DNA of 64,000 nucleotides from a virus (taxonomy: Duplodnaviria; Heunggongvirae; Uroviricota; Caudoviricetes): IMG/VR virus record IMGVR_UViG_2645727901_000008. One strand, 5' to 3'. The position numbers and the translations under genes were made by a program. The notes beneath the pieces are model-generated. The model was not told the DNA's origin and did not search any database. It saw only the letters and a program-made list of their open reading frames with translations. Positions 2,876 to 12,942 of the stretch are shown here, one piece after another. Position 1 is the first letter of the stretch, and each line of letters starts with the position of its first letter.

Positions 2876-3852
2876 TTGTTCGGCACTCCTAATATCATTC
2901 GTGTTGTGTAGCCTACGCGGTCTTCAAAGTGCGCAACATTTTTTACTATCAGCTTGCGGGGCATTGATTCATCAATGCGGTTTTCCTGGTCATAGCGGTA
3001 TACGATAATCTCTATTACCATTCCCGGTTTTATATCCGGATTGCCTGCGACTTCTATATCCATTTTGGGGACGAGAGACAGCTGCATATTGCGAAGAGTT
3101 TCCATATCAGAATCGGATATATAACGCACTGGGAGTGAGCTATCGCCATATTCGACGTAGCCATCGGTCATGGAATACCCAACAAAACGATATTGATTCT
3201 TTGCTGTTGTCGCATGTTCCTGTTGGAGTAGGCGCATTTTGGACAAAGTGTATTCTGCTTTAGGGTTATTCCCCTCGTAGGTAAATGATGGCGTTTGCTT
3301 CATCAGATCAGCCAGGGTGTAAAAGTTAAATTCCCCACGGCATACCCAACATAATGCACCTTTGTCTCGCGCTATCTGCGAGAGCATTTTTGACGGTTTG
3401 TCACCGGCATTCAGATGATATGTAACTGCGCGTTTTAGCACGCTGCTGGTAATTTTAAGCTTGCCGGAATATGCCTTGAATATAGCGTCTGGTGTTTTGT
3501 TGGTATGTAAATTTGTGCGCGGGGAGGGGATCTTAAACCTGCGCACGTCTTCACTGACAGCAATAACGGTAACAACATCACCAGCCAGCATTGCAGACGT
3601 AACAAAGAAGTCTGTTTTAAAAGTGCCTGCATTACCGTTTGGATCGCCCATTTCAGCCACCAGCGATGCACCGTATTTGGCTTTCCAGTCATCAATTACG
3701 GTGCCGGTAGCGTCATGAATTTCCAGTTTTAGCAAAGGGGCTTTGAGGCTGGTTTTTTCTACATATACTGCGGTAAAAATCCAGTCTCGTGGCACTTTGT
3801 TATCGTTAATGAGCACTGACTGTAGAAAATATTGTTGTAACTCCTGGGCCAC
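2872..3852 (-). CDS. Hypothetical phage protein (326 aa), possibly structural
   Basis: Long ORF tightly packed with neighbours on the same strand; no motif recognised. Confidence 0.45.
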   Translation of the reverse strand: MAQELQQYFLQSVLINDNKVPRDWIFTAVYVEKTSLKAPLLKLEIHDATGTVIDDWKAKYGASLVAEMGDPNGNAGTFKTDFFVTSAMLAGDVVTVIAVSEDVRRFKIPSPRTNLHTNKTPDAIFKAYSGKLKITSSVLKRAVTYHLNAGDKPSKMLSQIARDKGALCWVCRGEFNFYTLADLMKQTPSFTYEGNNPKAEYTLSKMRLLQQEHATTAKNQYRFVGYSMTDGYVEYGDSSLPVRYISDSDMETLRNMQLSLVPKMDIEVAGNPDIKPGMVIEIIVYRYDQENRIDESMPRKLIVKNVAHFEDRVGYTTRMILGVPNK

Positions 3853-3855
3853 TTA

Positions 3856-4623
3856 TCACCCCATAGATATCGAGGTTTCGGTAATAATACGTTTTGCGTC
3901 CAACTCCCATGCTGTGATCACGTCTGCAATCACACTTATCGGCGCTTGTGTGGCATAAATACGCTCTTCTCCAATTGGTGCCGAAACATCCGTAAATCCG
4001 ACTTCTTTGGCATCCTGTATCGAGCAAATCAGCGGGACCGGGACACGAACAAGGTGAGTGGTTGCTTCAAATTGTGTACCTGTCATCAGGCGAAGCCGTG
4101 CGCCCAGCGAATTACACATCAGACTCATGGTCGCTTTATCAGTTGACATTAACGTAACGTCATACGTCAGAATGGCCTGGGTGTATTCCAGTTCTGCTAA
4201 AGGCATTCCGGTATCCGGTTCGCAAAAACTGGCTACTTTTTTGCGGTCAATCTGCTGATCATCGTTGATATAATTGATATCCATAGTGCGTGAGATATTG
4301 ACCAGGGGGAGAGCATCCCGGTTAATGTTCTGGTTTTCAGGTTTTCTCCCTTGCCCGGCATTTGCGCGACGAACTGCTTTAAGAAACTCGATCGCATTGT
4401 CGAAACGGGCCACATAGACACGCTCTGCTGGTGGACGATTCAGGAATGACGCAAAGCGTTTTTCTTCCGGCGCGGGGGCCACCAGTAAGATATCAGAAAA
4501 GATATTGCTGATTAGCGTAGCAAACGCGTTATCCACGTTTTCAAAGCCCGTGGTCTGGAATTTCCCTGTGCGTGAGGTTTGCCATTCACCTGTTCGCGCC
4601 AGGAGGGTTTTATTTGAAGTCAT
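3856..4623 (-). CDS. Hypothetical phage protein (255 aa)
   Basis: Long ORF in operon context; no motif recognised. Confidence 0.45.
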   Translation of the reverse strand: MTSNKTLLARTGEWQTSRTGKFQTTGFENVDNAFATLISNIFSDILLVAPAPEEKRFASFLNRPPAERVYVARFDNAIEFLKAVRRANAGQGRKPENQNINRDALPLVNISRTMDINYINDDQQIDRKKVASFCEPDTGMPLAELEYTQAILTYDVTLMSTDKATMSLMCNSLGARLRLMTGTQFEATTHLVRVPVPLICSIQDAKEVGFTDVSAPIGEERIYATQAPISVIADVITAWELDAKRIITETSISMG

Positions 4624-5453
4624 TCGATCACTCCGTTTTGAGTCGTATCAAAATTCCTGGCAGGTATGCAGTAGTAAAGCGAACCAACATGCTGTGTGCC
4701 GTAGCTAAAAATACGGTGCACGTACCACCAGCGGCGGGCTACGCCGTTTACCATCTCTTCATTCCATTCAAGAATTGATCCGACGGGGACGTTATTTGCT
4801 GCAATACGCAGAATCAGAACATCATCGGTTAAGCCATCCTGCTCACCGTCTGCGTCAATCGCATGGAAAGAGTCACGCCCGTCCGGGTTATCCAGCACAT
4901 AAACGATTTCAGGTTCCTGGTAAGTCAGTTCGCGCTGGTTGTTATCCAGTTCAGTGAATGACTCTTCTCCTGTTTCGTCGCTGACTACCCCATATGTGCC
5001 AACATCTGGTCGATATAAGAGAGCCTGAAACGCGTCTGGGCTGGATTCAATAATCAGCATCCAGTCTGCGCGGATTTGGTCGTTAAAGGCTTTATGCCCG
5101 TTATAGCGTGCTTTTAGCTGTGGAGTTGGTTCTCTGCCAGCCAGGGAAGGTGGAAGTATGGCTATATCTGATTCGGCAGCATCCGGAGTAAGGCCAGCGT
5201 TGCTATCAGCAAAATTATCATGGCTATCAGCTTTGGCGGCGGGTTGCTCTTCCAGAATGCTGAATGAATCCGAACCGGTATTGCCATGTTCCGGCGCGCC
5301 TCCTGCATTCGCTTCAATCGGCGCTGGCGTTTCTCTCTGCGTGCTGTCATGTTCTGACTCATTACTTGCCAGGTTTGCATCGTCAGCAAACCATTCGTCA
5401 AAACGGCCCATAAGCATCCTCAAAGGTCGATTTATCAGGTATCGAGGGTGCAT
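4620..5453 (-). CDS. Hypothetical phage protein (277 aa; start may be ATG at 5411)
   Basis: Long ORF; GAGG 6 nt upstream of the internal ATG at 5411. Confidence 0.45.
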   Translation of the reverse strand: MHPRYLINRPLRMLMGRFDEWFADDANLASNESEHDSTQRETPAPIEANAGGAPEHGNTGSDSFSILEEQPAAKADSHDNFADSNAGLTPDAAESDIAILPPSLAGREPTPQLKARYNGHKAFNDQIRADWMLIIESSPDAFQALLYRPDVGTYGVVSDETGEESFTELDNNQRELTYQEPEIVYVLDNPDGRDSFHAIDADGEQDGLTDDVLILRIAANNVPVGSILEWNEEMVNGVARRWWYVHRIFSYGTQHVGSLYYCIPARNFDTTQNGVIE

Positions 5454-5488
5454 TGTCTGGAGATTGTGATTTCAATTCATATCCCAAC

Positions 5489-5536
5489 ATGGGACTAAAG
5501 TGCTTTACATTGTCCCATATTGGGACTACTATACTT
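5489..5536 (+). promoter_or_regulatory. higBA promoter/operator region with nested inverted repeats (ATGGGAC...GTCCCAT, GTCCCA-TAT-TGGGAC) and a TATACT -10-like hexamer
   Basis: Inverted repeats read from sequence directly upstream of the higB RBS. Confidence 0.4.
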
Positions 5537-5556
5537 TCAGAGAGAAGGAATCTGTG

Positions 5557-5859
5557 ATGAAAATAATTTCGGTAAAAACACTAAGGGATTTCTGGGCGAA
5601 GAATCCCGATGCAGAACAGCCATTAAAGGCATGGGTTGATGAAGCAACAAAGGCTGACTGGAAAAATCCGGCTGAGATCAAAGAACAGTACCGGACAGCC
5701 AGCATCCTTAAAAACAGGCGCGTGGTGTTCAATATTAAGGGAAATGATTACAGGTTAATTGTCGCAATTGCTTATCAGCGAGGATGGATGTTCGTTAAGT
5801 TTATTGGAACACATAAGGAATACGATGCCATTGAAGCGGATACAATAGAACTGGAGTAA
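5557..5859 (+). CDS. higB: Type II toxin HigB (RelE-superfamily mRNA interferase)
   Basis: VFNIKGNDYRLIVAIAY...FIGTHKEYD aligns with E. coli HigB VFNVGGNELRVVAMVF...VMTHKEYD; ATG at 5557 with GAGAAGGA RBS. Confidence 0.8.
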   Translation: MKIISVKTLRDFWAKNPDAEQPLKAWVDEATKADWKNPAEIKEQYRTASILKNRRVVFNIKGNDYRLIVAIAYQRGWMFVKFIGTHKEYDAIEADTIELE

Positions 5860-5862
5860 ATC

Positions 5863-6222
5863 ATGAACATTAAACCTATCCGTACAGAACAAGATTATGA
5901 GGCCGCACTGCGTGCGGTCGAACCGATGTTCGATAACGAACCGGAAATGAACACACCGGAAGGCGATTTCTTTGAAGTAATGTGCCTGCTCATTGAAGAG
6001 TACGAGAAAAAGCATTACCCAATTGAGCCACCATCACCTATTGAAGCCATTAAATTCCGTATGGAACAGCAAGGGCTGACCGTGAAGGATCTGGAACCGG
6101 CGATTGGTAAGTCAAATCGAGTTTACGAAGTGCTTAATGGGACACGAAATTTGACGTTACCTATGATTCGTCGTTTACATGCCCAGTTTGGTATTCCACT
6201 GGAAAGTCTGGTTGGTGTTTAA
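5863..6222 (+). CDS. higA: Antitoxin HigA (XRE-type HTH)
   Basis: C-terminal HTH pattern GLTVKDLEPAIGKSNRVYEVLNGTRNLTL resembles HigA; starts 4 nt after higB stop. Confidence 0.8.
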   Translation: MNIKPIRTEQDYEAALRAVEPMFDNEPEMNTPEGDFFEVMCLLIEEYEKKHYPIEPPSPIEAIKFRMEQQGLTVKDLEPAIGKSNRVYEVLNGTRNLTLPMIRRLHAQFGIPLESLVGV

Positions 6223-6284
6223 GTTTGGCGGTCTGGAGGACCGCTTTTTATCTAAAATAAAAATTAGAAGGTTTGATAGCTTGT

Positions 6285-7022
6285 ATGGGCAAAAATTCAT
6301 CAACAGAAAACACATCTACAATTGACTCAATCAAGGGCACAATGGATGAAGCCATAAAAGATAAATTATTTAATAAATTATTTGCATATGTGGTGGTTTC
6401 ATTTTTTGTCGTTAATTGGCAAGAAATACTAATTTTGTTTAAATCTAAATATGATATATACACAACACTGTCTATAGTATGGGTAGGGGATAAATATCAA
6501 ATCCCTTATTTTGGAACCTTCATTGTATCTCCGTTTTTAGCTCACTTTGTGATGCCGTTTATATATGGCACTATTGCGTCCATAGTGATGCCTTATATTA
6601 CTATGCGTATATCAAAACTCACTGGTAGAAATTATGCGCAAATAAGATACATTGACCATGAATTTGACTCAGAAGAGAAAGCAAGAGTAAAGGCGTTGCT
6701 GAGAAACCTAAAGAAAAAAGAGGAAGAGCTTTTAAAATTAGAGGAACAAATAGAAGGTCAACAAAAAATACTGAATACAATCGAAGAAAAGAAGAGAGAG
6801 ATTGAGAGTGCCAGAGTGGCTCTGTATCACGGTATAAAAGTAATTGTTGATATATATAAAGCAAAAGATAAAAGGATTTCCACCAAAGAAGATTTTGCCG
6901 ATTTATTAAAAGCAATTGAAGAAAGTGATTTTTATAAAGACACTGGGTTGTGGGGTATTAATAAATTAATAGATGACGTGGAGACAATATATGAGTCTCA
7001 ATCGACATCAAAGGACAAGTAA
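6285..7022 (+). CDS. AT-rich accessory gene: membrane N-terminus plus coiled-coil C-terminus, unknown function
   Basis: Visibly AT-rich codons; hydrophobic segments then K/E-rich heptad-like region; sits between higBA and a convergent gene. Confidence 0.5.
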   Translation: MGKNSSTENTSTIDSIKGTMDEAIKDKLFNKLFAYVVVSFFVVNWQEILILFKSKYDIYTTLSIVWVGDKYQIPYFGTFIVSPFLAHFVMPFIYGTIASIVMPYITMRISKLTGRNYAQIRYIDHEFDSEEKARVKALLRNLKKKEEELLKLEEQIEGQQKILNTIEEKKREIESARVALYHGIKVIVDIYKAKDKRISTKEDFADLLKAIEESDFYKDTGLWGINKLIDDVETIYESQSTSKDK

Positions 7023-7055
7023 TATAAAAGGCGGGATAACCGCCTTTGTTGTAAA

Positions 7056-8252
7056 TTAAGAACCTTTCTTCACATACTCCATGAACATTTTTTCAGCTTG
7101 TGCAGGTGGTGTTCCTGCCATGACCAGCGCATCAATGAACGCCTGCTTCTTCAGTGCGAACTGATCGGCCAGGCGTTGCTGAAGCTCCTTGTTTTTCTGT
7201 TTCTCACGTTGCAACGCCGCTTCTTTTGCTGCCGCCCGTTTTTTCTGTGCGTCTGACAACTTTCTGGCCTTGGTCAGTTGGTCACGTAGCTTGTCAATCT
7301 TGCCGTTGTCCTTTGCCAGTTTTGTGCTTAAAGCGGCCTGGCGCTTCTGATAGAGCCTCCATTCGCGCTTGGCAGCGTCAACGTTTGTTTTACTGTTGCG
7401 ATTGCGATTAAACTCCCTCTCGTCTTCTTTTGAGAAGTGTTTGGTTGTACGGCGGCGATCGTCACCAAATGCAATTTGCGTTGCGGCCTTTTGTAACGCA
7501 CGAGCAATACTCATTTGCCAACTAGCGGACTGTAACCGCGTCATTGAGTGGATCACGTGTTTACAGGCGACGCCTTGTAGCTTAGGGTTACGAACTTTTG
7601 GATAGGCGTATTCTTTTGGCGGGGCCAGGGCAAAGTTACCCGCAGTAGCGATGTAACGATACCAGTATTGATGACGACCACAGTCACAATCGAAAGACAC
7701 CCGCCCGGCGCACAGTGATTTAGTGATTTTCAGAGCTGATTTATCGTCTTCTGCGATGTCATCGACCATCTGATCCCATTCTTCAAAGCGTATCCGGACG
7801 ATATGGTGCTGGTGGACGGATATATCCGATGCTTCTACGCGGATATGAATCACGTTGTGGCGAAGAGATACGGGTGTAGCTCTTTTGATACCAGATCCGT
7901 CATCCACGGCGTTATTTGCACGCTTAATATCGATTGCCTGGCTGGATGCCACCAGCTGGGCGTATGTGATGCCAGCCGTCTTGCTGTCATATTTTTCGCG
8001 TGTTTTACTCCGTAGCTTTTCGAAACCTTTCAGGTCGTCTCGCGTGAAGAACGTGCCGCCTTTTTTCTTCCCTAACTTGAGAATATCTTCGGCGGATTTG
8101 TTCCTCAGTCTACCTGGCGTCAGCGTCCGGTGAGCTTGTCGGCGCTTACGGGTTTGTTCTTTCCTGATAAGGTCGAATAAACGCGTGAAGTCCTTAGAGG
8201 ACAGGCCGTCAGTGATATAGCGCCCGTCCTGGTTTTTCAGGAAATCAGGCAT
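7056..8252 (-). CDS. Hypothetical protein (398 aa) with CxC...CxH zinc-finger-like motif and basic coiled-coil N-terminus
   Basis: Long ORF; FDCDCGRHQYW...ACKHVIH motif seen in translation. Confidence 0.5.
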   Translation of the reverse strand: MPDFLKNQDGRYITDGLSSKDFTRLFDLIRKEQTRKRRQAHRTLTPGRLRNKSAEDILKLGKKKGGTFFTRDDLKGFEKLRSKTREKYDSKTAGITYAQLVASSQAIDIKRANNAVDDGSGIKRATPVSLRHNVIHIRVEASDISVHQHHIVRIRFEEWDQMVDDIAEDDKSALKITKSLCAGRVSFDCDCGRHQYWYRYIATAGNFALAPPKEYAYPKVRNPKLQGVACKHVIHSMTRLQSASWQMSIARALQKAATQIAFGDDRRRTTKHFSKEDEREFNRNRNSKTNVDAAKREWRLYQKRQAALSTKLAKDNGKIDKLRDQLTKARKLSDAQKKRAAAKEAALQREKQKNKELQQRLADQFALKKQAFIDALVMAGTPPAQAEKMFMEYVKKGS

Positions 8253-8574
8253 TTTCTATCTCCGGTTCCGCGCTCGCGTAATCACGGATCTTGTTCCTCA
8301 GCCATGCCACATCAGGAAGAGTTAACGTGGTCCCGGCGGGCATTTCTTCCATTTCTGACTCATGGCCCACCAGCACCCGGAATACCCAGCGCAAATCTGC
8401 ATTGCCATACGCCCTGTAGGCTGCAAGGTCTGAACGATATACTTCATCAATCTTTATCGTGTACTGGAAATTATCAGAGTGATACTCCGATACCCGCTTA
8501 ATCATTTCCTGGTGAAACAGCGCACGAAAAATATCGTCTTCAATGTACCTATCGTCGAGTCTGCTATAGCCCAT
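8245..8574 (-). CDS. Hypothetical protein (109 aa)
   Basis: ORF overlapping downstream gene start by 8 nt, consistent with coupling. Confidence 0.4.
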   Translation of the reverse strand: MGYSRLDDRYIEDDIFRALFHQEMIKRVSEYHSDNFQYTIKIDEVYRSDLAAYRAYGNADLRWVFRVLVGHESEMEEMPAGTTLTLPDVAWLRNKIRDYASAEPEIENA

Positions 8575-8767
8575 AACAAAGCCTCTCAGTCATAACATGG
8601 GGGAAACTGTATGCAGGGTGTGAAATGCGAGAAACAGACAGGCCACCAGTTCAGGGGGATGTGGTTCATAAATCCCCTCACTGGTGACAAGTGACTTTCA
8701 TTAATCTTTATGCGGGGGCCAGCTTCATTTGCTGGCATTAGATTAAAAATTAAACGGAGTGAATGAC

Positions 8768-8902
8768 ATGGATGTTATTCTAGAATTGTTAAAGCTTATT
8801 GATCTGTTTATGAACGCCTCATTGACCACTCAAATACTGGCGTCAATATTTTTGTTACTCTTCTACCTGGTATTGAGGGAGTTAACAAAGCTACTAATGT
8901 GA
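8768..8902 (+). CDS. Small hydrophobic peptide (44 aa), candidate membrane peptide
   Basis: ATG at 8768 preceded by GGAG; translation MDVILELLKLIDLFMNASLTTQILASIFLLLFYLVLRELTKLLM; below ORF-track size cut-off. Confidence 0.3.
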   Translation: MDVILELLKLIDLFMNASLTTQILASIFLLLFYLVLRELTKLLM

Positions 8903-9556
8903 TCAAAGTATCACGGTATCTTCATCAACTTCTTTCCCAGCCAGTGACTTTGGCTGGGAGGTGCCTGCTTTAACTTTTTCATGCCCAATAATGGAAAGGA
9001 ACGAAGCGAGTATGCCTGTTTTTTGCTCTTTCTCGACTGTACCGGTCATCTGCTCTACATAATCTGCACTGGCAACGTTGTGGTATACGGTCGCGTAGCA
9101 ACACAGGATCATCAGAATATGCTCCGGCCTGATATCCTGCCAGTTCACCCTGTAGACTTCTTCTCCGTTACCGTTGTATTCGGTATCAACGATAGAGTCG
9201 GGGATTTCGAAAGCACCTTTGTTATTTTGCGGCAGGGATAATAGTTTCTGGAGTTTTAACTCTCTGTATCTTTCCATCCCGACGATGATTGCTGCTCTTC
9301 CATCGGCATGACGGGTCTTGAGAGTCACCTGACTTGCTCCGGTGCCAGCGGAGATCGTTGGCGTAATTTCGTCTACCAGTACCTTAAATTTGCTTTTCCG
9401 CAGGGCTGCTATAGCTGGAGGAATTTTTTGCTTTTGCTCCAATGCTGACGCGGGAAGGGGTTTTACTTCGTTAATAATGAGAGCACCGTCTTTCAGTATT
9501 GCAGTGAGCATTTGAGGCTTGCTGGTGGTCAGGCTGAATATTGCGATCTTTTCCAT
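8903..9556 (-). CDS. Hypothetical protein (start at internal ATG 9556 with GGAGGAAGG RBS)
   Basis: ORF with strong RBS at the internal Met (MEKIAIFSL...). Confidence 0.5.
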   Translation of the reverse strand: MEKIAIFSLTTSKPQMLTAILKDGALIINEVKPLPASALEQKQKIPPAIAALRKSKFKVLVDEITPTISAGTGASQVTLKTRHADGRAAIIVGMERYRELKLQKLLSLPQNNKGAFEIPDSIVDTEYNGNGEEVYRVNWQDIRPEHILMILCCYATVYHNVASADYVEQMTGTVEKEQKTGILASFLSIIGHEKVKAGTSQPKSLAGKEVDEDTVIL

Positions 9557-9824
9557 TGTCCTTCCTCCACGGATGACGGATACAAAAAAAGGCCGCACAT
9601 GGCGGCCTGCTTTGGCGTTATGACTCCCTACCGCGCTTCGGCTGAAAGTTAATCGTCAAAAGAACCTTCAACGGGAGCCGTTAGCGCGATGGATTATGTG
9701 CAGTTTGTGATTTCCAAAATAGTGTCAACCACTTTTTGTGGATTTTATTTTTTGACCGAAATTTGGCCTAAATCATGTTGATGTAGTTAATTGTTTTTAT
9801 AACATAAAACTTCATTTTGTTTAC

Positions 9825-10448
9825 ATGAAGGATGGTGTAGTGAAGTTAAGGGTTTTAGGGGCCGCGCTCGCGGCTATGTTGGGATGCGTATCTGCTAATA
9901 CTGCCAATGCAACTGCGTTACCTGCACAATTCAGGGCAGGGCAGCAGGTTATGAATAATGCTGGTGGGGATCATTCACAAGCGGCCATTATGGACTTTTG
10001 CAAGAGGGAGGGCATTCCATTACGGCCTGTTGGAACTCAGTTTATTGGTAAAACTGACTTTTGCGTTTTTGCATATACAGCATATCTGACGGACAAAGCT
10101 ATAACAAAAACAGGTTATTCAACCAAAGATACTCTTTCCAGATTAAGTCAGGGATGGCAGCAATTCGAAGTGTATCGCCAGCAAGGATTAGGTGAGTTAT
10201 TGCAACCACTTTTTATGCTTGCGTTGGTGCCCGAGGGGCAGCAATTTTTGGTTAAAAAGGGAATGCTTCGCCAAAGTGATATTGCCGGGTTCGATAGCAT
10301 GATGGCTTATGAGCGCAAACTAACCGAGCAGCGAAATAAAAAACCATCTGCTTCATGTGTGCAAAGTAAAACAGCAGAATACAGTGCAGTAGCCGGGCCT
10401 TTAGCCAAACAAATGGCAGAGCAATGGTGTAAAAAATACGGGCAATAA
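9825..10448 (+). CDS. Secreted protein with N-terminal signal peptide, unknown function
   Basis: LRVLGAALAAMLGCVSANTANA signal-like N-terminus. Confidence 0.5.
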   Translation: MKDGVVKLRVLGAALAAMLGCVSANTANATALPAQFRAGQQVMNNAGGDHSQAAIMDFCKREGIPLRPVGTQFIGKTDFCVFAYTAYLTDKAITKTGYSTKDTLSRLSQGWQQFEVYRQQGLGELLQPLFMLALVPEGQQFLVKKGMLRQSDIAGFDSMMAYERKLTEQRNKKPSASCVQSKTAEYSAVAGPLAKQMAEQWCKKYGQ

Positions 10449-10468
10449 GTTACGCAGCGGAGGCAGAA

Positions 10469-10861
10469 TTGAAAAGATTGACTATTGCTTTACTGGCGTC
10501 TTTCCCTTTGATCGCGAGCGCCGGAAATTTACAAGTTAAGTGCGGTCGGTTTGATATAAAAATCTATCCAGATGCCATATTTCTGAATGGGAATAAGGTT
10601 GATAACGTACACCGAAAAACTAAATCTGACGTAATGAGCTATGTGTTCCAGGAGTATGCGGAGATGGGGGGAACTTACACGCTGTACTCGCTGGATGTTC
10701 CTTCTCGCGGTGATATGACATTATCCCATCAATGGCAGAACGCCGATGGCGAAGCTCTGCGCGAAGTTAAAACAGAAAAATGCGGCACTTTCCATTCTTT
10801 TAAAGGGAAAGTGCCAAATGTTAAATCTGTGCTTGAAAAACAGCGCGCAGGTGATTTTTAA
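10469..10861 (+). CDS. Secreted/periplasmic protein with signal peptide, unknown function
   Basis: MKRLTIALLASFPLIASAG signal-like N-terminus. Confidence 0.55.
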   Translation: MKRLTIALLASFPLIASAGNLQVKCGRFDIKIYPDAIFLNGNKVDNVHRKTKSDVMSYVFQEYAEMGGTYTLYSLDVPSRGDMTLSHQWQNADGEALREVKTEKCGTFHSFKGKVPNVKSVLEKQRAGDF

Positions 10862-10949: not shown

Positions 10950-11567
10950 TCATTTTTGTCGGATCTTTTCCAGCATATTTAATTCATTATCACTTTCTGC
11001 TGCTGAGACGGTTGGCCTCACATTTCCGAAATATTTCCTGTGAGACTCATGACTTATGTATTCACCGACAGTTTCATTCTTGAATATACGAATTTGACAT
11101 ATGCGAGATCCAACAATAAGTTCTACAGGGCTATTCCCATGATTAAATAACTCTAAAGATATACAGCCTCTGTACCCTGGTTGTATCATGGTATTTAATG
11201 AAAGACCAAGCCTTGTATAGCTGCTTCTGGACAATACATCAGCGTAGCAATCTGGTGGCAAACAAACATATTCTAATGTTGTTGCCAGTACCACTTGATT
11301 CGGGTAAACAATGAATCTATCCCCAAGATCTCTCCTTGTTTCCTGGAAAAATGTTCTGATTGGTTGATGAGTATCATTGTTTTTTGATGGAATTAACTCT
11401 ATTGACGGCTTCCTTGTCATAATAGACACTAAAAAATCGTAACCAAGTCTAAGGTCTATGGTGAAGTTCCCAATTTGGTTTTTATTTAGAAGAGGTTCAA
11501 TGAACAACGACTCAGGTTCTTCTGATTCATAATATTGCAGCAATTCAGCTTTGCTTAGGAGATTCAT
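10950..11567 (-). CDS. dCTP deaminase-fold (Dcd/dUTPase-superfamily) protein
   Basis: IDLRLG, VYPNQVVLATTLEYVCLP, SSYTRLGLSLN and QPGYRGCISLELFNHGNSPVELIVGSRICQIRIF align motif-by-motif with E. coli Dcd as I recall it; ATG at 11567 overlaps upstream stop (ATGA). Confidence 0.65.
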   Translation of the reverse strand: MNLLSKAELLQYYESEEPESLFIEPLLNKNQIGNFTIDLRLGYDFLVSIMTRKPSIELIPSKNNDTHQPIRTFFQETRRDLGDRFIVYPNQVVLATTLEYVCLPPDCYADVLSRSSYTRLGLSLNTMIQPGYRGCISLELFNHGNSPVELIVGSRICQIRIFKNETVGEYISHESHRKYFGNVRPTVSAAESDNELNMLEKIRQK

Positions 11568-12637
11568 TGTGCACTCCATTTTTCAAGAATCATTACGTTT
11601 CGAATCGATTTTTCAACCAAATCATTTATAGTTTTTTCTATGGCTTCTTGTGACAACCCAGACCATATACCCGTAGGTTTTTCCCATTCAGAGCATAAGT
11701 ACTGCCAGCTGCTGTTAATAAAAGCATGCATTTCATTGTGGTCGCGAATAACAAAAGGACGCACATTATCAAAAGCTGATTTCACATCAAGCAAAGGTGT
11801 CGGCAATGTCAAACAAGGAGAAATAATCTGCCCACCATTATGTAAGGCTGATATCACAGCATTGAACATGCCAACAACTGGATTTTCCACTTTGTTCAAA
11901 AAGTCGCTTACAATTTTAACTCTATCTTCTGTGGATGGGTGAGTATAGCTTGCAGGATGAGAGCCAGCTAATTTGTATAAGAAATCTACCCCACTTTTTC
12001 CAATAAATTGGGCACTAAATAGATCTGCAAAATATTCTCTGCAATGATTTATCCAAATAACATCAGGTAGATTACTCCATTCTGGTCCAGGAAGTGTGCC
12101 TTTGTCCTTGGAACGATAGTTAAGACAGGCAAGCTCAGAAATACCTTTGCTAATATCAACGAAATGTCCCAATTCGTGATATAAAGGTATAGAGCATAAT
12201 GGTCGTCTTCTGTACATTTCAGGTAATGAAATCTGAATTAATTCGACATCGAATTTGACATTTAAAACTTCGTCAAATAAAGAATACAAATTCTTGTTTA
12301 CAGACTTAAAATAAAACCCATGCATATCTGGAGATAGGGCTGTGGTTATAAGTGTTTTTTCACTTATCCATTTTTTACAGGCATCATTTAAGCAATAGAC
12401 AATCTCGTAGGGAATTTTCTTTGTAGTACTGCCAGTGAAAAAATTAACTGCATCGGTGATAAAAAAAGTACAATCCGCAATTATTTTATCAGCAACATTC
12501 ACATGGTTTTCATAGAGCTTATCCACCGCTTCTTGTAGAACAGCAAGATATTCATGCATGTCTTTAGAAAAATAGGGAGATTCTGATATCTCCCTTAGCT
12601 TATTTCGAACTAATGTAAGTTGTGTAAATGCAAGCAT
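11564..12637 (-). CDS. HExxH zinc-metallopeptidase-like protein (357 aa)
   Basis: YHELGHFVD motif with downstream acidic/His residues; start ATG overlaps upstream stop by 1 nt. Confidence 0.5.
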   Translation of the reverse strand: MLAFTQLTLVRNKLREISESPYFSKDMHEYLAVLQEAVDKLYENHVNVADKIIADCTFFITDAVNFFTGSTTKKIPYEIVYCLNDACKKWISEKTLITTALSPDMHGFYFKSVNKNLYSLFDEVLNVKFDVELIQISLPEMYRRRPLCSIPLYHELGHFVDISKGISELACLNYRSKDKGTLPGPEWSNLPDVIWINHCREYFADLFSAQFIGKSGVDFLYKLAGSHPASYTHPSTEDRVKIVSDFLNKVENPVVGMFNAVISALHNGGQIISPCLTLPTPLLDVKSAFDNVRPFVIRDHNEMHAFINSSWQYLCSEWEKPTGIWSGLSQEAIEKTINDLVEKSIRNVMILEKWSAQ

Positions 12638-12942
12638 TAAATGTACTCTAATACATTCCGGGCCATTACGGGTTCTAACATATCTTCGCTAGTTACTTTG
12701 GTTAGCACCTGGGCGAGCGCCTTAGTGTGGCGTATCTCTACCGCGAGCGAGATGGACTCTCTGTGAGAAGGAATCTGTAATTGATCACCTTTATCTACAC
12801 TTAAGTTTGAGGCTTCTCTGATCACCTCATAAACCCGTAACTTTAACTGCTGTGACACTTCTTGTTGAGATGCTATAAGCTGAAGTACAGTCTTGATCAA
12901 CTTCAAAGAATCAGAAGCTTGCTGAGGAACCGCATAGAGCAT
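12637..12942 (-). CDS. Small helical protein (101 aa), first gene of the three-gene cassette
   Basis: ATG at 12942 with GGAGGGG RBS; coupled to the next gene. Confidence 0.5.
   Translation of the reverse strand: MLYAVPQQASDSLKLIKTVLQLIASQQEVSQQLKLRVYEVIREASNLSVDKGDQLQIPSHRESISLAVEIRHTKALAQVLTKVTSEDMLEPVMARNVLEYI

Follow-up and report, generated by a model that had tools for sequence, protein, structure and literature searches.

Why should the most AT-rich part of a long piece of phage DNA be a single open reading frame (ORF) that stands between a toxin-antitoxin (TA) pair and genes for the tail, and what might its product do? The question is posed by positions 6285–7022 (+) of a 64,000-nucleotide stretch of DNA from a tailed phage (Caudoviricetes; IMG/VR record IMGVR_UViG_2645727901_000008), the whole of which we analyzed and refer to below as the window. 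This ORF, which we call X, encodes a protein of 245 amino acids (aa). A first-pass annotation, made from the sequence alone, had described it as a visibly AT-rich gene for hydrophobic helices followed by a K/E-rich coiled coil, inserted next to a higBA module and before a convergent gene, in the kind of locus where accessory defense or exclusion genes accumulate, and had recognized no family for it. We find that X is an accessory, rapidly exchanged cassette bounded by two terminator hairpins, and that in Enterobacteriaceae it is frequently the distal gene of a mobile higB-higA-hairpin-X cassette. Its product is firmly predicted to be a two-pass inner-membrane protein with a cytoplasmic coiled coil, and we tentatively favor a role for it in protecting the lysogen.

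X is a genuine gene under purifying selection. With a GC content of 0.324 (0.30 at third codon positions), against a mean of 0.475 ± 0.039 for 738-bp windows across the 64 kb, it is the lowest-GC stretch of the whole; 0.16% of the 738-bp windows are equally low and every one of them overlaps X, so that its AT-richness is as visible as had been noted. The same holds elsewhere, as X was more AT-rich than its surroundings in 11 of the 11 contexts examined. The probability that its 249-codon open frame arose by chance is about 1.6e-10, calculated from X's own base composition. The ratio of nonsynonymous to synonymous substitution (dN/dS, Nei-Gojobori) between alleles is 0.20–0.28 overall, with lower values in the membrane region (0.06–0.20) than in the coiled coil (0.35–0.48), and synonymous distances along X reveal clear mosaicism inside the gene. 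These ratios, a match to the family phrog_8191 and the 79 clusters retrieved by profile searches (both described below) led us to conclude that X is real and constrained. The opposite reading, that the ORF is non-functional, either an open frame that arose by chance or a remnant that is decaying within AT-rich filler DNA, could draw on the lack of a functional annotation of X in any database, the weak spacing (13 nucleotides) of its Shine-Dalgarno-like sequence and the terminator-like hairpin just 5′ of the gene. We regard its probability as practically negligible, as it is effectively refuted by the purifying selection seen in every pair of alleles, by the low probability of so long an open frame, by full-length homologs across genera at identities from 94% down to about 20%, and by the confident structure prediction obtained from the family alignment.

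The start codon of X is ATG. An in-frame TTG at 6273 offers an alternative, but it is disfavored because the homologs in the alignment all begin at the equivalent methionine, within the motif M-S/G-K/A-D/N-S-S, and because the RefSeq entry WP_178278662.1 (“hypothetical protein”; from a 100%-identical E. coli GZ2408P plasmid) has the same ATG start. The Shine-Dalgarno-like AGAAGG, as read from the sequence, lies at 6266–6271 (+).

The genes around X are homologs of the P1/D6 tail and baseplate genes 6, 24, 7, 25, and 26 and of mat. The region is 98.6% identical to non-mobilizable plasmids of approximately 92 kb from Salmonella and E. coli and, in its conserved parts, 87% identical to phage D6. 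These similarities identify the window as part of a D6-like phage-plasmid, related to P1. DNA similar to X was detected in 29 of 5426 complete E. coli genomes, always on plasmids, with sizes of about 90–109 kb among those listed.

X had been taken for an accessory gene, and comparative genomics, proposed at first pass as the check for variable presence, bears this out: among collinear D6-like phage-plasmids X is present, absent, or replaced by another allele. The slot between genes 7 and 25 holds higB-higA without X in NZ_LT906557 and, in another collinear element, RelE-HigA′-HigA only, likewise without X. Where X is present behind the same front ends, its alleles have protein identities of about 94, 79, 67, 63, and 37%. 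Phage D6 itself provides an example, since its orf72 (HigA) is 97.5% identical to the HigA of the window whereas the adjacent orf73 (X) is only 36.7% identical to X. Feature by feature, and where the feature is present, nucleotide identity is 92–98% for higA and 89–99% for gene 25 but falls to 66–87% for X.

The gain or loss of X maps to two terminator hairpins, because elements that lack X have a single hybrid hairpin (GGCGGTCtgtatGACCGCC-TTTGTTGT) in place of the two that flank X. The first of these, at 6227–6249 (+), is GGCGGTCtggagGACCGC followed by T5, a terminator- or attenuator-like element between higA and X (−13 kcal/mol, z −2.5) that forms the left boundary of the X cassette. The second, at 7027–7047, is a bidirectional terminator hairpin that X has in common with the tail gene converging on it (−15.4 and −11.7 kcal/mol, z about −4.2, 0/200 shuffles), and it forms the right boundary. 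All 22 of the hits to X in IMG/VR are D6-like elements, 21 of which keep the upstream flank; in each of these 21 a HigA1 gene or its relic lies directly 5′ of X, and HigA1 is often truncated while X is intact. Some D6-like elements (E. coli NZ_OY757108, locus 5448–6019) also have an extra RelE/ParE-HigA pair between gene 26 and mat, so that the tail genes of one phage-plasmid can be accompanied by three or more TA modules.

The association of X with higBA extends beyond the type found in the window. A second HigBA lineage (103 and 139 aa), only 25–29% identical to the window's pair, is also followed by X, both in the gene-7/gene-25 slot of another D6-like element and on large non-phage IncFIB plasmids of Klebsiella, where the cassette lies between insertion sequence (IS) elements. 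These D6-like and Klebsiella cassettes are 99, 99, and 91% identical over higB, higA, and X, respectively, which argues that the three genes moved as a unit. In most of the Klebsiella IncFIB plasmids listed (e.g., K. pneumoniae NZ_CP021697), IS903B splits the X homolog after about residue 130 and leaves higBA intact. A P1-like phage-plasmid of Pseudocitrobacter has HigB-HTH-X (HTH, helix-turn-helix) between its tail-tube genes and pmgC; identity to the Klebsiella pair is 54% for its HigB and 53% for its HigA, whereas its X is only 26–28% identical. In all three cassette lineages a stable hairpin lies between higA and X, but the three hairpins are unrelated to one another. A sister P1-like element (locus 3781–4916) has TacA-TacT (GNAT), then a 68-aa N-terminal remnant of HigA, and then X. 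We had considered this as an independent TA association and rejected it, since the HigA remnant left 5′ of X shows that TacAT-X was derived from higBA-X; the element is also a clear example of TA swapping in place, with TacA-TacT substituted for higB. The first-pass statement that X was inserted next to higBA is thus correct as to adjacency but needs amending, as the whole higB-higA-hairpin-X arrangement recurs, as a mobile cassette, in three types of replicon.

The window's type of HigBA (73–81% nucleotide identity) also stands alone, as a unit of two genes, beside the immunity region of lambdoid prophages of Shiga toxin-producing E. coli (STEC; E. coli O103 RM8385 chromosome) and on small plasmids (pTX313-2), where it adjoins a TenpIN toxin gene. 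These bare modules, together with the kinship of the pair to components A and B of the defense system PD-lambda-2, suggest that one HigBA “front end” has been combined repeatedly with different genes downstream of it.

X relatives also occur without a TA pair. In P2-like prophages of Klebsiella a lone X forms an opposite-strand gene in the interval between gpV and gpS, and in a P1-like element of Nissabacter it follows a Dmt-like methylase. With and without higBA, X relatives occupy three different slots of P1-like phage-plasmids. Other relatives, likewise without a TA pair, adjoin a WYL/WCX regulator, directly follow a PD-T7-4-like (DUF4145) gene, or have an AAA_13 ATPase and an integrase nearby, and two contexts had neither telling neighbors nor a TA pair. 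The expectation that this is a type of locus where accessory genes gather is therefore supported by relatives both in prophage tail regions and beside defense genes. In one Klebsiella P2-like prophage (locus 6833–7576) a 247-aa phrog_10503 gene (unknown function; sub-threshold match to HNH_5) adjoins X, so that the gpV/gpS slot there holds two accessory genes. A chromosomal island of Klebsiella grimontii (CP067380, locus 6232–10345) has, in this order, umuD-umuC, an X homolog (45% identity) and degenerate copies of D6-type genes 25 and 26 (81–82%). There is no TA pair directly at this X homolog; TIR, Cap4-nuclease, HicAB, and integrase genes are nearby, and the whole resembles a piece of a D6-like phage-plasmid that a defense island has captured. 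In two distant loci a 149-aa gene is convergent with X; these genes were tried as a conserved partner and rejected, as they are unrelated to each other.

X has a family, although one without a function. Its match to phrog_8191 (unknown function) has an expectation value (E) of 1.5e-112 and covers residues 1–245 against positions 1–241 of 242, and the wider family spans phrog_8191, 4780, 13369, 35327, and 22645, all of unknown function. The earlier “no family” verdict consequently stands for Pfam, NCBIfam, and PADLOC and falls for PHROG. A word-indexed search gave only 20 close relatives; an exhaustive profile search gave 79 clusters at E ≤ 1e-3, the listed hits being mostly of about 190–290 aa and matching over most of their length, along with some short fragments and a few longer proteins. 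All of these relatives are named “hypothetical protein” in the databases, and their hosts include Klebsiella, Citrobacter, Pseudocitrobacter, Yersinia, Nissabacter, and a Flavobacterium. The family is carried mainly by temperate phages, phage-plasmids, and other mobile elements.

Searches for a characterized relative were uniformly negative. Pfam, NCBIfam, and PADLOC gave no family for X or 42 of its relatives, only coiled-coil noise, and a match to DUF6947 was below threshold (17.5 bits against a cutoff of 27); a sequence-profile search of the PDB likewise gave only coiled-coil noise. The known superinfection-exclusion PHROGs (SieA, SieB, Imm, Sp, Cor, Llp, and gp15-type) did not match X, for which the only PHROG hits at E ≤ 0.01 were of unknown function. 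No PHROG or Pfam lysis family (holin, antiholin, or spanin) matched X, and the locus is not a lysis cassette. Identification as a known lysis or structural family, named at first pass as a refutation, found no candidate in the annotated PHROGs or Pfam. The 42 relatives and X also had no match to the SLATT families of Pfam at E ≤ 0.01, and none to SecB or any other Pfam family. In the literature searched we found no description of X or of a cassette of higBA with a membrane protein.

The structure of X was modeled with AlphaFold on a 42-sequence alignment, with a mean predicted local distance difference test score (pLDDT) of 85.7; an earlier alignment of 14 close sequences had given a poor model (pLDDT 65). 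The model shows two transmembrane (TM) helices and a coiled coil, in agreement with the first-pass description. Residues 1–30 (6285–6374) comprise a variable N-terminal tail and a conserved amphipathic helix motif, KDKLFNK, modeled as a helix at 10–28. Hydropathy gave two hydrophobic segments, at aa 31–53 and 76–108. The first is TM helix 1 (6375–6443), which is hydrophobic in 42 of 42 members and carries the family-invariant N44 in an NW motif. It is followed by a predicted periplasmic loop at aa 54–82 (6444–6530) with the motif KSK.DI, in which a short helix and a β-hairpin are modeled at aa 58–80; the β-hairpin is missing in distant members. TM helix 2, placed by hydropathy and the model at aa 83–108 (6531–6608), has the invariant P91 and P103 and is continuous with an 85-residue K/E-rich coiled-coil stalk, predicted to be cytoplasmic, at aa 109–193 (6609–6863). 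The two are modeled as one uninterrupted helix of 111 residues (aa 83–193) with pLDDT 88–98; the sequence that follows the hydrophobic segments is 40–41% charged and keeps one heptad register over aa ~128–197. A small C-terminal three-helix head at aa 194–245 (6864–7019), modeled over aa 201–244, completes the protein, the residues Y191, D203, F204, and F216 being conserved. All of these parts are on the (+) strand.

The topology is predicted from the alignment of 42 members, in which both hydrophobic segments are kept family-wide, K and R are enriched on the N- and C-terminal flanks and the loop is net acidic. This bias indicates that both termini are probably cytoplasmic and that a loop of about 20–30 residues is periplasmic. 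The residues invariant in the close family cluster in the membrane part (D26–K31, N44–W45, S54, T61–S63, H87–F88, P91–F92, G95, and P103), and over the 42 members N44, P91, and P103 are still invariant and S54 nearly so. Given this concentration and the low dN/dS of the same region, the transmembrane helices are more than a passive anchor. Foldseek searches with the model found nothing significant in the PDB (best E = 2) or in BFVD (best E about 1). The weak, non-significant PDB matches were nearly all to pores of two-TM P-loop cation channels, and the idea of a potassium channel was kept as a lead only, as the filter motif is not conserved and the loop is deleted in distant members.

The cassette begins with what appears from its sequence to be a type II HigBA TA module, the gene for a HigB/RelE-fold toxin preceding that for an HTH antitoxin, and X does lie immediately after it. 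The toxin gene higB (5557–5859, +; 100 aa) matches Pfam HigB_toxin (3.3e-34) and PADLOC PD-Lambda-2_A (1e-41). It is separated by 3 nucleotides from the antitoxin gene higA (5863–6222, +; 119 aa), which encodes an HTH domain only and matches Pfam HTH_3 (3.8e-05) and the N-terminal part of PADLOC PD-Lambda-2_B. Upstream is a sigma-70-like candidate promoter for the cassette (TTTACA-17-TACTAT, 5504–5532, +), which is a consensus match only; promoter-like sites in the region are not more numerous than expected by chance. Two operator-like palindromes, TCCCA-N3/4-TGGGA, at 5482–5494 and 5513–5525 (+) bracket its −35 element. These two are the only ones in the 64 kb (0.12 expected), with none 5′ of X, and they are the expected kind of operator for HigA, putatively its binding sites. 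To the left is the P1 gene-7-type tail gene (4620–5453, −; phrog_1906, 2.6e-115), and to the right the gene convergent with X, as had been reported, is a P1 gene-25-type tail gene (7056–8252, −; phrog_1722, 5e-197), both also identified from the annotation of D6. X is therefore on the strand opposite to the late tail genes and on the same strand as higBA, a pair that must be expressed in the prophage state. A promoter of X's own was considered and rejected: only about 35 nucleotides separate the hairpin at 6227–6249 from the ATG, a weak −10-like TAAAAT is the sole candidate element, a −35 being absent, and in the other cassette lineages there is no space for a promoter. Since no convincing separate promoter fits, X is most simply transcribed by read-through from the higBA promoter, past the hairpin.

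We tentatively favor the reading that X is a membrane-acting exclusion or abortive-infection protein, expressed in the lysogen by read-through from the higBA promoter, although we would put its likelihood somewhat short of even. The basis of this reading is context and architecture. In this scheme, X would be transcribed in the lysogen from the HigA-autoregulated promoter through the hairpin; because of that autoregulation its level would normally be low and would rise when HigA is lost. At the inner membrane X would protect the lysogen against incoming phages or other mobile elements, either by blocking genome entry (superinfection exclusion) or by oligomerizing through its coiled coil and, once its variable cytoplasmic part encounters a phage product, making the membrane permeable (abortive infection). 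We slightly favor abortive permeabilization over exclusion at injection, because the variable part of X is predicted to be cytoplasmic. The TA pair would supply a promoter and an addiction function and would not be an obligate partner. An anti-phage role fits best with the moron-like placement of X, opposite to the late genes and on the strand of the TA pair; with its variable presence and allelic turnover; with an architecture that joins a conserved membrane module to a cytoplasmic part that varies; and with the defense-type neighbors of several relatives. A number of points weigh against it. X has no homology to characterized exclusion or abortive-infection proteins in PADLOC, the annotated PHROGs, Pfam, the PDB, or BFVD. 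The variable, phage-facing part of an exclusion protein would be expected in the periplasm, and that of X is predicted to be in the cytoplasm. Several relatives are in contexts without recognizable defense genes, and guilt by association in the accessory slots of prophages is weak evidence. Lastly, expression of X in the lysogen is inferred, and the higA-X hairpin with its T5 could terminate most transcripts.

Three other functions have to be set against this one. X could be a lysogenic-conversion membrane protein with no part in phage defense, acting in envelope stress, ion flux, cell division, or plasmid competition or entry exclusion to the benefit of the host or of the maintenance of the element. 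Such a role would sit well with the presence of X in chromosomal islets that lack phage genes and on non-phage plasmids of Klebsiella, with highly conserved membrane helices whose polar residues resemble those expected for a specific membrane partner or a pore, and with the fact that its only structure matches, although not significant, are to pore domains of two-TM cation channels. The channel signature, however, is not conserved in the family, most occurrences of X are in temperate phages and phage-plasmids, and both the fast replacement of alleles and the variability of the stalk and head are more in keeping with evolution driven by conflict than with housekeeping modulation, so that we consider a conversion role rather unlikely. 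A role in the lytic cycle, in lysis timing (as a holin, an antiholin, or spanin-like) or as an accessory to tail or baseplate assembly, would explain why X lies among tail genes, as it does in D6-like, P1-like, and P2-like elements, and a membrane helix followed by a coiled coil superficially recalls the i-spanins. Spanins, though, have one helix and a periplasmic coiled coil, whereas X has two membrane helices and a coiled coil predicted to be cytoplasmic. As X is opposite to the late-gene strand in D6-like and P2-like elements, is missing from otherwise collinear D6-like elements, is present on non-phage plasmids, and matches no annotated lysis or structural family among the PHROGs, a lytic function seems very improbable.

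The third alternative is that X is an obligate component of a tripartite HigB-HigA-X system, either a membrane sensor or anchor that controls the release of HigB or an effector under HigBA control, which would parallel the accessory third genes of PD-lambda-2 or of toxin-antitoxin-chaperone modules. Much of the evidence on the mobile cassette speaks for this: the order higB-higA-X recurs in D6-like elements (with two HigBA lineages only 25–29% identical), in a different slot of a P1-like element and on Klebsiella IncFIB plasmids; the cassette was transferred as a unit (99/99/91%); HigA1 or its relic precedes X in 21/21 IMG/VR loci with an upstream flank; the HigA remnant persists even where TacAT has taken the place of HigB; and 3/3 lineages have a hairpin in the spacer. 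Moreover, HigB and HigA are close to PD-lambda-2 A and to the N-terminus of B, and PD-lambda-2 needs its third gene for defense (PMC9519451). An obligate partnership is nevertheless at odds with the lone X relatives of P2-like prophages, another P1-like slot and chromosomal islets, with the finding of this type of higBA by itself in STEC lambdoid prophages, on small plasmids and in D6-like elements, with the truncated HigA1 beside an intact X in many D6-type loci, with the splitting of X by IS903B beside an intact higBA, and with the exchange of X independently of higA. We therefore judge it unlikely. A bolder version of the exclusion or abortive-infection reading, in our opinion decidedly unlikely, is that the family comprises novel phage-borne effectors resembling a pore or channel, each with two TM helices and a coiled coil and wired to a TA promoter. 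If the labile HigA were then lost during infection, a toxin that cleaves mRNA and a protein that permeabilizes the membrane would be set free together, and the cassette would be a TA-gated, two-pronged abortive-infection module of phage-plasmids that has been shuttled to ordinary plasmids.

Phage-plasmids of the D6/P1 type are common in E. coli, Salmonella, and Shigella. In the literature searched, the higBA of D6 is treated only as a plasmid-addiction or post-segregational killing module (PMC6799933), with no mention of X. Our results show that D6-type higBA usually heads a mobile cassette of three genes and that X belongs to an uncharacterized, fast-evolving family of membrane proteins whose members recur as morons in P2-like prophages as well. 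Should X exclude or abort phages, it would represent a new single-gene membrane defense family and would explain part of the superinfection behavior of lysogens that carry such elements, and the cassette would be the second example, after PD-lambda-2, of this type of HigBA joined to third genes that can be exchanged. Otherwise X is an ordinary hypothetical moron.

Two other features of the window were observed. A second AT-rich block at 10950–12942 (−), with GC 0.32–0.40, contains three genes: one for a DCD-like dCTP deaminase (10950–11579, −; Pfam PF22769, 1.3e-30), a 357-aa ORF that overlaps it (11564–12637, −), and a 101-aa ORF (12637–12942, −), the latter two without a Pfam or PADLOC match. 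This block could be a defense operon of the nucleotide-depletion type. At 9825–10861 (+), in the region equivalent to P1 simB, there are two adjacent small ORFs (207 and 130 aa) with N-termini that resemble signal peptides. The 207-aa ORF matches phrog_12786 (unknown function), and neither has a PADLOC match.

Among known systems, the inner-membrane superinfection-exclusion proteins that prophages carry as morons, such as HK97 gp15, P22 SieA, and T4 Imm, are an obvious comparison. Like them, X is a small single accessory gene in or beside the tail region of a temperate phage; it is present in some elements and missing from others, its product is predicted to reside in the inner membrane, and its expression from the prophage is plausible. 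Unlike them, X is larger and has a long cytoplasmic coiled coil, its variable part is predicted to be cytoplasmic and not periplasmic, and it is not similar to any annotated PHROG family. Membrane-pore effectors of abortive infection include the two-TM effectors of cyclic oligonucleotide-based anti-phage signaling systems (CBASS), SLATT domains, Cam1, and Csx28. X shares with these an N-terminal TM module joined to a cytoplasmic part of the oligomerizing or sensing kind, the membrane part being conserved and the cytoplasmic part variable; however, it has no match to SLATT or any other effector and no nucleotide-sensor domain, and no partner signaling enzyme is nearby. The order of its elements (TM1, short helix, loop, and long TM2 running into a cytoplasmic coiled coil) is also that of two-TM P-loop cation channels such as NaK, MthK, and the NaK-NavSulP chimera with its C-terminal coiled coil. 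The fold matches to these channels are nonetheless not significant (E ≥ 2, query-normalized TM-scores of 0.11–0.18), and the loop of X has no conserved selectivity-filter motif and is partly deleted in distant members.

The other comparisons concern the cassette as a whole. PD-lambda-2 consists of a HigB-like protein A, an HTH-peptidase B, and a third gene, C (Vassallo et al., 2022; PMC9519451), and this distal gene is needed for defense but not for neutralization of the toxin (PMC9519451). The window's HigB matches A over its full length (PDLC03979, 1e-41), its HigA matches the N-terminal 119 positions of the 402-position model of B (7e-43), and the three-gene layout with a distal gene is shared. 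In contrast to B, HigA has no peptidase domain (119 aa against about 400 aa), nor does a peptidase ORF follow higA; and in contrast to C, which is P4-antitoxin-like, X is a membrane protein with no PADLOC match at E ≤ 1. Membership in PD-lambda-2 was therefore rejected, the peptidase domain and component C being absent. Toxin-antitoxin-chaperone modules such as HigBAC and CmdTAC, which are used for abortive phage defense (PMC11980606, PMC9519451), are likewise built from a type II TA pair with a third, co-oriented gene behind it. Their third gene, however, encodes a soluble SecB-like chaperone, whereas X has two TM helices and no match to SecB, and X and higBA each occur without the other. Across all of these comparisons, the one family membership that holds for X is PHROG phrog_8191.

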